A stretch of DNA of 64,000 bases from Naegleria gruberi (lineage: Eukaryota). This document shows positions 27,224 to 64,000 of the stretch, piece after piece. The stretch lies in NCBI GenBank assembly GCA_000004985.1, contig GG738845.1; one strand, written 5' to 3'. How positions within the stretch are numbered: position 1 is the stretch's first letter; every line of letters begins with the position of its first letter. The position numbers were made by a program, and so were the translations under genes. Below the pieces are notes generated by a model that searched no databases, was not told the DNA's origin, and saw nothing but the letters and a program-made list of their open reading frames with translations.

Positions 27224-27267
27224 TTTGGCGCCAAACATTTTAAAATCATTTCAGCGCCAAAAAAAAA
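27224..27267. promoter_or_regulatory. A 70-bp bidirectional promoter carrying a palindromic E2F/DP-like site TTTGGCGCCAAA (27224..27235) and a second GCGCCAAA half-site (27252..27261).
   Basis: The site lies between the divergent ATGs of the MORN gene (27196, minus strand) and APC1 (27267, plus strand). The same motif is found upstream of other cell-cycle genes in the window. Confidence 0.5.
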
Positions 27268-33516: not shown

Positions 33517-33533
33517 ATTTTGGCGCCAAAAAA
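33517..33533. promoter_or_regulatory. E2F/DP-like site TTTTGGCGCCAAAAAAG.
   Basis: It lies 32 bp upstream of the ATG of the BUB1-like gene. Confidence 0.45.
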
Positions 33534-38600: not shown

Positions 38601-38613
38601 ATTGGCGCCAAAC
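38601..38613. promoter_or_regulatory. E2F/DP-like site ATTGGCGCCAAAC in a divergent promoter.
   Basis: It lies between the ATGs at 38545 (minus strand) and 38769 (plus strand). Confidence 0.45.
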
Positions 38614-40046: not shown

Positions 40047-40138
40047 TGGTGAGTTGGTCGAGTGGTCTAAGACGACACGTTAAGGTATGATTAATACCGT
40101 GTTCCGCAAGGGCGTGGGTTCAAATCCCACACTCATCA
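40047..40138 (+). tRNA. tRNA-Leu(AAG) with an 11-nt intron, roughly 40084..40094, after position 37.
   Basis: The acceptor stem is GGTGAGT/ACTCATC. The D-arm GTCGAGTGGTCTAAGAC is characteristic of Leu. The anticodon stem ACACG/CGTGT flanks the loop TTAAGG plus the intron. A long variable arm and the T-arm GTGGGTTCAAATCCCAC complete the cloverleaf. Confidence 0.75.
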
Positions 40139-58054: not shown

Positions 58055-59626
58055 ATGCAAATCTTTTTTGATAACTACGAGCAGTTGGTAGAATTGTTTT
58101 CCCGCCATTTTAAAAAGTTAAATATAAAAAAAATGCCTCAACTTCAATTAAATGTGTTGTTCAGCAATGGAAAGGCAATTTGCTTTTTCCCAACCACATC
58201 ACTACAAACAAGAGAAGAGTTTGAATTGTTCTTGGAAAGAGAGTATGAAAAATTCTATCCTACCGATAGTGTTGCTATAAAAAATGTACAATATCTTTAT
58301 GTAGATAAGAACAATACTCCGATCAAGTTTGAATTGCCAACAAATTGGGATGATATCATTTCAAAGTCTCCAGCTAGGTCTAATATTGTAGAAATAATAT
58401 TTGGCAAAAATCCAATGATTTTTGTGGAATTGGACAATCAACCAAAGCAAAACATTCAATACGAAATTGTTTCACCAATACCAGCATCATCTAGAAAAAA
58501 GCAAGTAGAACGTTCTACTATCAGCAATGTAGCAACTTCACTTGAATTCTCTACAAGTAGTGCAACAAGTAATGATGATGAAAAAGTTGTAATATTTGAA
58601 GAGGATGACGATTCAATTTTTGATAAGTTTATTGAAACTAAAGAATTGGAAAAGAAACAAACTATTTCCCCAGAAATTCCACAATCATCAGCAGTTGTCG
58701 ATAAAAAAGAGAATGAAACACCAGCCACCACCACTACAATTACATCAAACCAAAATTCTCAACCAAGTCAAGATTCTCCAGAAATTGATTTTGATGAAGA
58801 TATTATCTTTTCAGACAATGAGGAACAACATGTGGAAAAACAACTCTTCCCTGAGGAATCTGCACAAAAGAGTCAAGAATCTGACTCTATGGTTATTGAC
58901 GACCTATCTCCTCTTATGGATGACATATTGAGCCAATCAAATGAAGAACCTGTAAAAATGACTGATGAGCTTAATGAAGCACTCTGTACACAAGCTGTAG
59001 ATACACTCCTCACTCGTGATGAATCATCTCAAAAAGAAGAGGTTACCAAGAAGGTTGACCAACCAGAACAATCAAAGCAAAGTCAACCTCTATCAACACC
59101 TCAAAAATCATCATCTCAACCAAAATCTTCACAAGAGAAGAAGGTGGCACCAGTTTTTACTCCAAAATCCTCACAAGAGAGGAAACAGGAACAAAAAGCT
59201 ACTCCAAAATCCTCAACACAAGAGAAGAAAGTAATTACAACACCAAAATCTTCACAAGAAAAGGTAACAACTCCAAAAGCCTCTCAAGAACAAAAAGCCT
59301 CACAAGAGAAGAAACAAATTACAACCCCAAAAGCATCTTCACAAGAAAAGGCAATAACACCAAAATCCTCACAAGAGAAGAAACCAGCAACAAATGAAAA
59401 TAACTCAACCAACAAGCCAGTCAAACAATTAACACCAAAAACTCCTATCTCAATATTATCAAAGGTGAAGAATTACAAAACACCTAACCCTTCACAAAAT
59501 CCTAGAGAGCAAGTTGCAGAAAAATCAAAGAGCACAACCAAAAAGAGGAAGAGAGATCAACTTTCTTCTATCATTGCTAAAAAGGCCATCGACTCATTGT
59601 CTTCCAGTAAGAAGAAAAATAAATAG
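58055..59626 (+). CDS. Hypothetical protein with a Lys/Ser/Gln-rich tandem-repeat C-terminus, probably nuclear. The true start may be the A-run ATG at 58133.
   Basis: The ORF starts 27 nt after the COQ3 stop. The in-frame ATG at 58133 has the typical AAAAAAATG context. The C-terminus carries 'TPKSSQEKK' repeats and a 'KKRKRD' NLS-like element. Confidence 0.45.
   Translation: MQIFFDNYEQLVELFSRHFKKLNIKKMPQLQLNVLFSNGKAICFFPTTSLQTREEFELFLEREYEKFYPTDSVAIKNVQYLYVDKNNTPIKFELPTNWDDIISKSPARSNIVEIIFGKNPMIFVELDNQPKQNIQYEIVSPIPASSRKKQVERSTISNVATSLEFSTSSATSNDDEKVVIFEEDDDSIFDKFIETKELEKKQTISPEIPQSSAVVDKKENETPATTTTITSNQNSQPSQDSPEIDFDEDIIFSDNEEQHVEKQLFPEESAQKSQESDSMVIDDLSPLMDDILSQSNEEPVKMTDELNEALCTQAVDTLLTRDESSQKEEVTKKVDQPEQSKQSQPLSTPQKSSSQPKSSQEKKVAPVFTPKSSQERKQEQKATPKSSTQEKKVITTPKSSQEKVTTPKASQEQKASQEKKQITTPKASSQEKAITPKSSQEKKPATNENNSTNKPVKQLTPKTPISILSKVKNYKTPNPSQNPREQVAEKSKSTTKKRKRDQLSSIIAKKAIDSLSSSKKKNK
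59111..59390 (+). repeat. Degenerate in-frame tandem coding repeat of roughly 36-45 nt, CCAAAATCYTCACAAGAGAAGAAA and variants, in seven or eight copies.
   Basis: The DNA unit is visibly reiterated and encodes repeated 'TPKSSQEKK'/'TPKASQE' peptide units. Confidence 0.6.
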
Positions 59627-59833: not shown

Positions 59834-61349
59834 TTAATCATCTTCATAATCACTATCACTATCCTCAATAGCACTGGTTTTCTTCTTTTTGGTTGGTGGT
59901 TTTGTAGGTCTCTTCTTCTTTTGGTTGGGTGTAACTTGTTTCTTTTCAAAAACAACTTTTTCATCATCTTCAGGAAGTGAAGGGACTGTTGGTATGTAAA
60001 AATTTTCGTCTTGAAACGTGTTCATATCACTAGGTTTGGCAAAAATGTCTATTATTTGGGATTCGTCTTCTAAATTCGAAGGATACAGAGCTGTTTTGAA
60101 TTCATTTTCACAATCGTTATCGTATTCATTTTCTCTTTCAATATACATTTCATTACAATCTATTTCATCAAAATCTGGAGAGAATGCACTCCAATTTTCC
60201 ACAACGTGTTTAGTCCAAAATAAAATATTAGCTCCAATGGTTGCCGTTACAACAACAGGTCTTATATATTTGAAATTTTGAGGATGACACGTTAATGCAG
60301 TTATATTTTCATTATATGGACATTCTAGAATTTTTACAAGCTCACCATAAATAATATATTCATAAATTAGTACTTTGCTTCCATTAGTTGCTAATAAATA
60401 ACTTGAATCATTGTGTACTGTTGTAGAATTCAAGAAGGAGCAGAGTGTATAATTTTCATGCATAATTGCATTCTTAAACTCCTTAATTTTTGTAAAGTTC
60501 ACAAACTCTCCATTTCTTGTCTTTTCAAACTCGACTTTAAAAACATGAATGGCCATTCTAGTATTCACTGCAATATACCCACCATTCTTTGAAAATTCTA
60601 ACTGTACAATAAAGTAAAACTTATTAGTTACTACTTGCTTTGATTTCAAATCAATATTGACATCTTCGGAAATGTGAAATGGTGTATCAACTGGATGTGA
60701 TTGAAATGGAACAACTCTTAATGTTTCTGTATTTACAACTACTATTTGTCCAACAGTGTTTCCGATGAATATATATTTTCCACAAGGTGTGAAAAGTCCT
60801 CCGACACAATCCTTTCTCTTTACCTTGTATTCATGAAGTTTGATTGGAAGTTGTCTCCTCTCATCAGTTTGCCAATTTACAAGAAAAGGTGGATTATCAA
60901 CTGTGCAACAAAGTACTAAACTCCTATTAAAACACATTAAAAATTATTGTAGTACTAAATAATACCTACTCATTAGATGGACAAAGGTAGGTTCTTATCA
61001 GTGGAGTTGGCATTTCAATTTTCTTTATACATCTACGTTCAATTATATCACAAATAAAAACCTTTGTAGAACAAGCCACCAGAATATATCTATAATCTTT
61101 AAACCATTCTATTGCAGAAATGGGATAAGATTCAATCATTGTTATATGTGAAATTAGCGAGAGAGTATCATAGTCATACACTCGCAAGGCTCCATCAACA
61201 CATCCGATGGCAATTAAATTTCCTCTATGATTAAATTTTACAGCAGTTCCCATCTTTTCTGCCTCGCTAAGACTAAAACCCTCTCCCAAGTCTTCCGGAT
61301 AGGCATCAATTAGCTTATCCAGCGAGGAACCCATCATTAAAATATTCAT
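59834..61349 (-). CDS. RbBP5/Swd1 WD40 subunit of the COMPASS/Set1 histone-methyltransferase complex. Two exons: 61349..60970 and 60923..59834.
   Basis: The N-terminus 'MNILMMGSSLDKLIDAYPEDLGEG...NHRGNLIAIGCVDGALRVYDYDTLSLISHI' parallels RbBP5. 'FWTKHVVENWSAFSPDFDEIDCNEMYIERENEYD' matches RbBP5 '[34 protein letters not shown]'. The intron (+ coordinates 60924..60969) has donor GTAGGT and acceptor TTAATAG, and phase checks. Confidence 0.75.
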
Positions 61350-61384
61350 TTTTTTTTAATAATAAATATTATTGTGTGATGTAG

Positions 61385-61398
61385 ATTTGGCGCCAAAT
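61385..61398. promoter_or_regulatory. E2F/DP-like site TTTGGCGCCAAATT.
   Basis: It lies 36 bp upstream of the RbBP5 ATG at 61349 on the minus strand. Confidence 0.45.
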
Positions 61399-62383
61399 TG
61401 TATTTGAGCAGATTCAATTCAATTTTGCGTATTATGGTTCAAATGCTGATATAACACTGTCTCTTCAAATAAATATCAAAACAATTACATTGATCACAAA
61501 CTAACACACTGCAATAATTACCTATAGAATTAGAACAGTTTAGAATGTTGGTAAATGGTTCACTCTGATCTTATTATAAAATGTTATGATCCCCACATTC
61601 TTCAACCTCAATATTTGTTGGCGTTTAATGTTGGCAATCATTCATGCTTGATTTCTATTGTTGTTAAGGATCGGTACAATACACTAAACAGCAGTATCTC
61701 CCTTATTTTCAACCTACTAAACCAATGCTGCAATATGCATACCATTGTTTGAAACAATCAACACACCACATGAACCATTGAAATACTGTGGCATAATCGA
61801 TTCATTCGATAAAGACCAAAATTAAGAGTACAAATGTTGACAGTAAACTCCAGTAAGCGCGAGATTTGTATTAAAATTACACGCTCTGTTTAATCCCTAT
61901 AATCGCTCGTAAAAATCTCTGGTGGTCCATACCTTAGGAACCTTGATAGAAAATCTCCTCTATAACAAGGAATGCATTGTTATCTTTAGCTGAAATTACA
62001 CTAGTGAGCGCGATGTGAAACTTCTTAGTAAACCTTCGCCCTGATCCGAAAGGTACAGTTTGAATGTGCCCCTCATATTATAGAGAGAAGTAACCATCCA
62101 TTTTCACAACAACTCAATGTGGTATCCCTTCCACACACAACCAACACAACACCCCAATCTCAGCCAAAACATATATAGTGGTGTTAGAGAAATGGAGAGA
62201 GCATTATTCAAAAAAACAACTTTAATCCCCTCCCAAAGCTTGGCTACGTGTCTGTAGACTGGTTGTGTACATTCAATCCATCACTCCATTACCAATCCCT
62301 ATTTATCAACACCACCATCACTAATCTTCCCTAACTCATTTTTCATTTTCCTCAATTCTTAACAATACACTGACATTTTGAAC

Positions 62384-63031
62384 ATGTTTGCCTTAACTTC
62401 ATCACCAATACCAACTAGTAATGGAACGATCTCACACTTGGTTAACTTAACCAATGTAAAAACTTCCACTCATATATTATGTGTTCCTGACTATACGTCC
62501 TCATCAACCACTAGTCAAAACTCTGATGAGTATGTTTCAATTCTGAAAAGAAGTAACAACCGTACTCGTAAATCTCTCATTCTTGATGAAGATTCCACTT
62601 CAAGTTCCAATGAAGACGAAGGCAAGTCAAGAATGAGATCAGTAGACTTGAAAAACACGTTTACCACCTCACACCAATCTCAAATCATTCGGTGCAATAG
62701 AACAAGTGCCAATCAAAAGAGTTACATTTGCTATGATGATATTAAGAAGCATTTCTTTCTTCCAGAAGGAGAAGCTGCAAAACGTTTGGGGTGCTCCAAG
62801 AGTAAGCTCAAAAGAATCAAGACAAGACTCAATATTGAACGTTGGCCATACAGAAGAATCCAATCTCTGTTAAACCAAAAGTCAAGTTCCAACAAGGAAA
62901 ATTCAAGGTTGATTGACTTGGCTGTTGATTTTGTTTTGAATTATCCAAACTTAATTACCAAATATTCCAATGATGATATTTCTCTTATTGCCAAACGTTT
63001 TGATAGAGTCAAGATTAGTAACCTTTTGTAA
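62384..63031 (+). CDS. RWP-RK-domain protein, a putative transcription factor.
   Basis: The C-terminal domain 'YICYDDIKKHFFLPEGEAAKRLGCSKSKLKRIKTRLNIERWPYRRI' matches the RWP-RK consensus, including the RWPYRR signature. The first ATG is at 62384. Confidence 0.6.
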   Translation: MFALTSSPIPTSNGTISHLVNLTNVKTSTHILCVPDYTSSSTTSQNSDEYVSILKRSNNRTRKSLILDEDSTSSSNEDEGKSRMRSVDLKNTFTTSHQSQIIRCNRTSANQKSYICYDDIKKHFFLPEGEAAKRLGCSKSKLKRIKTRLNIERWPYRRIQSLLNQKSSSNKENSRLIDLAVDFVLNYPNLITKYSNDDISLIAKRFDRVKISNLL

Positions 63032-63272
63032 TAGGACATGTTGTCCGATGATTTTACCCTTATTGCATTGTTAATATCAAGTCTGTATATAGAGTCCCCC
63101 AATTTTGCTTTCACTTATTGAACAATAAACATCAGTAACTGTTCCCACCAGATGTGCCAATAATGAACTCTGGTTCGATACCACACAAACCATTCATTGT
63201 AATTTGTTGGTTTGGGAGTGGGTTGCTGAAAATGTAAGAAAATACTATAACAGCTCATTGAGTTCAAAGAAG

Positions 63273-64000
63273 TTAATTGTTGTTGTTATTATTGTTGGCA
63301 GGAATCGACATTAAAGTTGGATTAATAGTAATACTCTTGGTCACATCATTTGTCTTGTAGATTCCAACAAGAGTATTTGCTAATTCAAACATATTGTTTC
63401 TTAAACTAATAATGATAAATTGAGCATCATTTCTTGTTCTCTCCTTTACATAATTTGCTACTATCGAAACATTTCTAAAATCCAAGGCAGCATCAATTTC
63501 ATCCATAACATATATTGGTGTTGGCTTATAGTAATGCAAGGCAAAAACTAAAGCAAGAGAAGAAAGAGTCTTCTCACCACCAGATAGATTAGAAATATTC
63601 TTCCAACTCTTCTTTGGTGGTCTTACTGAGAAAACAATACCCTCAGAAAAAGGATCTAAACTGTCTACTAATTCTAATTCAGCATCACCACCAAGGGTAA
63701 TGGTTTGGTAAATTTCTTTCAGTTTCATTGTAATATTAGTAAATCCTTTCATGAACTCATCAAGTCTTCTCTTTCTGAGATCTTCGTATTCCTTTTGTGC
63801 CTTATTTCTTGATTGGGTTACCGTTTCAAATTCCTTGTTTTTCATTTGATAATCATCTTCCTTCTTTTTAAATTCATCAATAGCTGACATATTTGGCTTC
63901 ATCTTTTCCAGTTCGGATTCAATAACTGTAATATCATAATTGAGTGTATCAAAACCAATTTCGGAAAGTTCTAAATCAGTTTTTCTTTTCAATTTCTTTG
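63273..64000 (-). CDS. SMC4 (condensin) C-terminal ATPase head, partial. The gene continues beyond the window end.
   Basis: 'LSGGEKTLSSLALVFALHYYKPTPIYVMDEIDAALDFRNVSIVANYV...AQFIIISLRNNMFELANTLVGIYKT' is near-identical in pattern to the SMC4 signature, Walker B and D-loop. The ORF is still open at 64000. Confidence 0.75.
   Translation of the reverse strand, partial: KKLKRKTDLELSEIGFDTLNYDITVIESELEKMKPNMSAIDEFKKKEDDYQMKNKEFETVTQSRNKAQKEYEDLRKRRLDEFMKGFTNITMKLKEIYQTITLGGDAELELVDSLDPFSEGIVFSVRPPKKSWKNISNLSGGEKTLSSLALVFALHYYKPTPIYVMDEIDAALDFRNVSIVANYVKERTRNDAQFIIISLRNNMFELANTLVGIYKTNDVTKSITINPTLMSIPANNNNNNN

Follow-up and report, generated by a model that had tools for sequence, protein, structure and literature searches.

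Positions 62384–63031 (+) of the window, i.e., of the whole 64,000-nt stretch of Naegleria gruberi contig GG738845.1 that was analysed, contain a single-exon coding sequence for an RWP-RK protein, running from ATG to TAA and specifying 215 aa plus the TAA stop. Taken together, the evidence makes it probable that the locus represents an annotated, small and intron-less RWP-RK gene of the RKD/MID type, equipped with a short leader and an ordinary divergent promoter spacer shared with the neighbouring gene. The gene and the presence of RWP-RK proteins in the Naegleria lineage are already known (2010 N. gruberi annotation; family expansion published in 2021), and what is added here is limited to a C-terminal block specific to the subfamily and a candidate footprint of a core promoter.

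Gene identity and protein architecture

The product of the ORF is identical (100 %) to NAEGRDRAFT_61644 (XP_002683311.1, EFC50567.1, D2UX57). D2UX57 already bears the PF02042 assignment in public databases, and the N. gruberi record is titled 'predicted protein'. A literature search yielded no paper naming NAEGRDRAFT_61644, and neither this identifier nor the DNA-binding-domain string was found in the accessible part of the supplement text of PMC8296547. An N-terminal extension of the coding sequence was considered and ruled out on account of an in-frame stop codon at 62360–62362, which precludes any unspliced extension, and of the start codon being common to the closest relative (locus L002).

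The assignment to the RWP-RK family, as proposed by the sequence-only reading, was borne out by the search for Pfam PF02042 that had been named beforehand as its test: the match covers aa 115–162 (62726–62869, +; profile positions 2–49 of 49) and, with 66.5 bits (E = 1.9e-18), lies above the curated gathering score (cutoff 29.3). The peptide quoted there as a C-terminal RWP-RK motif, AAKRLGCSKSKLKRIKTRLNIERWPYRRI, does correspond to aa 131–159; the domain is not strictly C-terminal, however, since 53 residues still come after it. The hexapeptide RWPYRR (aa 153–158; 62840–62857, +) is a variant of RWPxRK in which R, W, P and the R at position 5 are retained, while the final K is conservatively replaced by R. 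No other match to [RK]WP.[RK][RK] occurs when the window is translated in all six frames, and W154, P155 and R157 are invariant in all 12 subfamily members. Outside plants, conservation of the hexapeptide is reported to be lower at positions 1 and 6 (PMC7399023).

Upstream of the domain, two regions of differing character were distinguished. The N-terminal region (aa 1–83; 62384–62632, +) is Ser/Thr-rich, fast-evolving and predicted to be disordered (AF2 pLDDT <50 over aa 1–91), with length and sequence varying among relatives. It is followed by a conserved pre-domain block (aa 84–114; 62633–62725, +) with the pattern M[RK]S.D[LV]KN.FT.S....[IV][RK]CNRTS.NQ, as defined by the invariant columns of alignment A2. 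This block is present in P0007 and lost from more distant subfamily members; short strands were predicted in it by AF2 at low confidence. The AF2 model, which is built on a 5-sequence alignment only (mean pLDDT 56, pTM 0.42), places helices at aa 117–121, 128–135, 139–148 and 156–168 of the domain, with pLDDT of 73–88 over aa 111–190. Foldseek retrieved no significant match from the PDB (best E 0.97), the weak matches being almost all to helix-turn-helix DNA binders (ParB, KorB, NarL, sigma factors), and a sequence search for homologues of solved structure came back empty. According to the model, the RWP-RK domain (aa 115–162) may form a helical, helix-turn-helix-like DNA-binding unit. We infer DNA binding from family membership alone, and any function past that of an RWP-RK-type DNA-binding transcription factor is conjectural.

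In four relatives of the protein, conservation is strong from aa 84 onwards through the C-terminal end: P0002 (85 % identical; ENA metagenome), P0003 (62 %), P0004 (65 %; N. lovaniensis C9374_007263) and P0005 (68 %), of which P0002 also has the start region in common with the window protein. Comparison with L002, the locus of P0002, yielded a dN/dS of 0.16 overall, 0.42 for aa 1–83 and 0.04 for aa 84–215 at a dS of 0.58, a pattern of purifying selection that argues for a functional gene whose C-terminal module is constrained and whose N-terminus evolves fast. Residues 84–215 form a strongly constrained module of ~130 aa, in which the RWP-RK domain is succeeded by a C-terminal block of two predicted helices. 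In N. lovaniensis, locus L001 (6001–7131) harbours a DNA-binding-domain core, AAKRLGCSKSKLKRIKTRLNIERWPYRRIQSLLNQ, identical to that of the window protein. The strings SKSKLKRIK and ERWPYRRI are absent from the N. fowleri RWP-RK domains in the accessible text of Table S3 of PMC8296547; an N. fowleri orthologue could have been lost or missed.

The C-terminal block and its family context

The block at the C-terminus (aa 176–215; 62909–63028, +) has the subfamily-specific pattern ..A[IV].F[IV]...PN[IL]I.KY.N.DI......R[IV].I.NL[LI], with P188, I191, I199, N213 and L214 invariant in 12 sequences. It matches no Pfam family at E up to 1, and helices in or near it were predicted by AF2 at aa 171–186 and 196–206. 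Searched with a profile, 1.84 billion representatives gave 598 hits (E ≤ 1e-3), about 12 of which reach across the block, including P0007–P0012, P0021 and P0022 (clusters at 50 % identity). Judged from sequence, these proteins constitute a small RWP-RK subfamily with an undescribed C-terminal block of ~40 aa, which would mediate dimerisation or partner binding.

Plant RKD and Chlamydomonas/Volvox MID proteins are minimal RWP-RK factors that act in the programmes of gametes and egg cells, and the NIN-like proteins (NLP/NIN) are nitrate-responsive RWP-RK factors. The window protein resembles RKD and MID in being short, in having RWP-RK as the sole recognisable domain, located in the C-terminal half, and in its variable N-terminus, and differs from them by RWPYRR and by the additional conserved C-terminal block, which is undescribed for RKD or MID; this likeness is one of architecture (PMC7399023). 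With NLP/NIN it has the RWP-RK DNA-binding domain in common, but at 215 aa it is far shorter and has neither PB1 nor the N-terminal nitrate-responsive GAF-like region: no Pfam match to PB1 or GAF-type domains was obtained at E up to 1, which places it outside NLP/NIN. The absence of PB1, together with a C-terminal block outside Pfam, renders the architecture RKD/MID-like and not NLP-like.

The framing of the family as one mainly of plants, green algae and dictyostelids is outdated, since N. gruberi, a member of the Heterolobosea, possesses 39 RWP-RK genes and the family also occurs in stramenopiles (PMC8296547, PMC7399023), to which its range was widened by Yin et al. 2020 (PMC7399023). According to Table S3 of Herman et al. 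2021 (BMC Biol 19:142, PMC8296547), RWP-RK is the third-largest DNA-binding family of Naegleria, with 26–27 genes in N. fowleri; the Naegleria family described there has the organism group and the Pfam domain in common with the window protein. RWP-RK is, then, no marker of plants or dictyostelids. With 39 paralogues, a general-purpose role of the family in Naegleria is likely, and the gamete or nitrogen programmes suggested for NAEGRDRAFT_61644 are pure analogy without specific support.

An RWP-RK gene of N. fowleri, NfowleriV212_g4821, was reported to be upregulated in highly pathogenic amoebae passaged through mice (PMC8296547). Its DNA-binding domain, CRSIDRLEICKYFSIKEEEAAKEMNISKSKLKRVKKEMGISRWPYRRLEAL, differs very little from the one in P0021, which indicates that g4821 is a paralogue from this extended subfamily and not the orthologue. 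P0021 and the window protein are 33 % identical overall (alignment A3) and have in common both the RWPYRR core and the block PN-I-I...NLL at the C-terminus. g4821 thus appears to belong to the subfamily with the C-terminal block; as a paralogue, its expression data are not transferable to NAEGRDRAFT_61644. By including a factor induced upon mouse passage, the subfamily may help to direct functional studies of those transcription factors of Naegleria that humans lack. A more far-reaching proposal is unlikely to hold, namely that the subfamily is restricted to Heterolobosea, is defined by its C-terminal interaction block and controls life-cycle switches (amoeba/flagellate/cyst, cryptic sex) or virulence programmes, the C-rich, G-poor and ATG-free leader representing a translational control conserved across the orthogroup.

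The divergent spacer and the putative promoter

The divergent intergenic spacer comprises 1,034 bp (61350–62383), from the ATG (61349, −) of the neighbouring gene to the start of the RWP-RK gene. This neighbour (59834–61349, −) codes for RBBP5/Swd1 (COMPASS; WD40) in two exons with a very short intron at ~60940–60985. Residue 17 of its product aligns with residue 14 of human RBBP5 (E = 6e-31, RBBP5 structures), which indicates that the start of the neighbour is complete and that no further upstream exon is needed; the product also aligns to yeast Swd1. With 41.0 Mb and 15,708 genes averaging 1,677 bp in N. gruberi (PMC8296547 Table 2), the mean spacer amounts to ~930 bp by our own arithmetic. 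At 1,034 bp, the present spacer is therefore near the genome average and not unusual in length; within the gene-dense window it is among the three longest gaps.

The upstream ~1 kb is indeed ORF-free, as had been noted: every stop-to-stop frame in 61356–62362 is shorter than 90 codons, and the largest ORFs starting with ATG encode 65 and 46 aa. The accompanying claim that this leader region is less AT-rich than other intergenic DNA applies to its proximal part. G+C in 200-nt sliding windows is 0.39–0.425 at 61860–62355, the only compositionally distinct segment of the spacer, and ordinary (0.275–0.36) in the distal part at 61356–61850. The proximal values reach or exceed the 95th percentile of 147 other non-ORF windows (mean 0.297, sd 0.054); the G+C content is ~33 % for the window as a whole, in keeping with N. 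gruberi nuclear DNA, and 0.336 for its coding DNA. The CA-rich string that had been quoted, ccaacacaacaccccaatctcagcc, is located at 62141–62165.

Directly upstream of the RWP-RK start codon, an ATG-free, C-rich and G-poor tract (62195–62383, +; C 0.28, G 0.09) delimits the maximal plausible 5' UTR. On the plus strand, 18 ATGs were counted between 61350 and 62194 (the last at 62192–62194) and none in the final 189 nt. In the relatives, the ATG-free tract before the start measures 385 (L002), 185 (L003), 146 (L004) and 60 nt (L001). For N. gruberi alone, the depletion of ATG has a P of ~0.06–0.09, and the shuffle P values of the tracts (0.087, 0.008, 0.037, 0.116 and 0.38) combine to ~0.002 according to Fisher (own calculation). 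Over the last 150–190 nt before the ATG (C 0.28–0.29, G 0.09), the excess of C over G is the most extreme of 42 gene-upstream tracts in the window (~2.6 sd). The proximal tract of L002 is G-poor and C-rich as well, though its sequence is not common with that of N. gruberi. Predicted folding of the tract at 62195–62383 is weak (−9.8 kcal/mol per 120 nt). A putative leader of at most ~190 nt, C-rich, G-poor and moderately long, is supported.

Gene neighbours at the N. lovaniensis, L003 and L004 loci differ from those at the N. gruberi locus, so that syntenic footprinting was possible with L002 alone. The sole upstream match to L002 (526–550) is a 24-nt conserved island, ATTCAAAAAAACAACTTTAATCCC (62206–62229, +), a candidate initiator or core-promoter element. 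It is identical at 24 of 25 positions, collinear and located at −178 versus −185 from the ATG; its blastn E value is 0.003 in a small database, and the P for chance retention is ~0.03–0.04 as a rough estimate. A TATA-like box, CATATATAG (62170–62178, +), lies 34 nt 5' of the island as a putative promoter element; at the corresponding spacing from the island, L002 reads ATTTAAAC. Transcription of the RWP-RK gene would start at or near the island (62206–62229), ~34 nt 3' of the TATA-like box, and the resulting leader would be ~155–180 nt long, C-rich, G-poor, weakly structured and without upstream ATGs; the distal spacer would serve the RBBP5/Swd1 promoter. This placement of start site and leader length is the most likely one, as suggested by one 24-nt footprint and the depletion of ATG. 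Two other interpretations of the island were rejected. It is unlikely to be a general promoter motif, since the window contains no second copy and the more distant loci have none, and a coding function is made improbable by a one-base indel in the A-run between the two species and by the lack of a common ORF.

The upstream kilobase had been proposed to represent a long 5' UTR or a regulatory island, a suggestion that remains for the most part unsupported. That the RWP-RK mRNA begins with a long, regulated 5' leader spanning the whole ~1 kb (61400–62377) is very improbable. Such a leader would agree with the lack of ORFs in the spacer, which recurs in the upstream regions of relatives (at least 710 bp in L002, ~950 bp in L003), and with the raised G+C of the proximal half. 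Its 18 sense-strand ATGs, however, would give rise to many upstream ORFs, its distal part contains promoter elements of the neighbour, the length of the spacer is about that of the genome average, and blastn against L002 detected no conservation besides the 24-nt island despite 85 % CDS identity and a dS of 0.58. The raised G+C at 61860–62200 runs ~340 bp 5' of the proposed start and is not accounted for by a 5' UTR.

This otherwise unexplained G+C 5' of the island might be taken to indicate a short non-coding first exon within 61860–62200, joined to the coding exon across a 5'-UTR intron, in which case the island would be intronic or splice-related and not an initiator. Candidate GT donors exist (GTAAGC near 61853, GTGAGC near 62003), AGs follow a C-rich tract at 62236–62257, and N. 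gruberi genes on average do possess 1.7 exons; yet these signals were obtained by pattern matching only, the candidate exon region is not conserved, and the first AG past the island is ~100 nt away in L002 versus ~10 nt in N. gruberi, demonstrating that the splice geometry is not conserved. A spliced leader is accordingly considered decidedly unlikely. Still less credible, and indeed extremely improbable, is that the G+C-richer block hides an element of its own, be it a gene for a small protein, a non-coding RNA or the decayed fragment of a mobile element or pseudogene. Its G+C of 0.39–0.425 is nearer to, or above, that of coding DNA (0.336) than that of other non-ORF DNA (0.297), but its ORFs all fall short of 90 codons, and when the spacer was compared by tblastx with the upstream DNA of the four related loci, no conserved coding emerged (best E = 0.3). 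Rfam returned nothing in the spacer, either for 61000–63300 at E up to 10 or for the whole window at gathering scores. Likewise, no structured-RNA signal was detected on either strand with ViennaRNA (46 windows in 120-nt sliding mode, dinucleotide shuffles; z −2.2 to +1.3). No second copy was present within the window, where blastn of the spacer and a repeat search produced chance-level short matches only. For the preferred reading, a short leader with transcription starting near the island, the footprint and the TATA-like box together suggest what a core promoter of Naegleria might look like, in a form that can be tested. To our knowledge, little is known about core promoters in this genus.

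Palindromic sites and other features of the window

The palindrome TTTGGCGCCAAA at 61386–61397, 37–48 nt 5' of the RBBP5/Swd1 ATG, was attributed to the RBBP5/Swd1 promoter and not to the RWP-RK leader. Within the window, exact copies are located at 27224–27235, 33519–33530 and 61386–61397 and a copy with 1 mismatch at 38601–38612, compared with 0.08 expected; all four lie ~30–170 nt 5' of a start codon. The genes flanked by these copies include APC1 (in a divergent pair with a MORN-repeat gene), a protein-kinase gene and RBBP5/Swd1. By consensus, we take TTTGGCGCCAAA to be a classic E2F-type site. Naegleria encodes E2F and DP (PMC8296547). The distribution of the sites suggests E2F/DP-regulated promoters in Naegleria.

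The sole Rfam match of the window at gathering score is a 91-nt tRNA (40048–40138, +; 47.4 bits) in a 690-bp non-ORF gap; ARAGORN left it without anticodon assignment, which suggests an intron-containing tRNA. At lower coordinates than the RBBP5/Swd1 gene, an ORF of 523 aa (58055–59626, +) has no Pfam match, and the C-terminal half of its product consists of degenerate TPKSSQEKK-like repeats. Owing to these repeats, the GC skew (−0.47) and AT skew (+0.56) at 59050–59500 are the strongest in that part of the window. Downstream, the RWP-RK gene is converged upon, across a spacer of 241 bp, by a gene (63273–63992, −) encoding an SMC-family C-terminal ATPase head (PF02463, 117.7 bits), which extends past the end of the window and whose product terminates in an Asn run.
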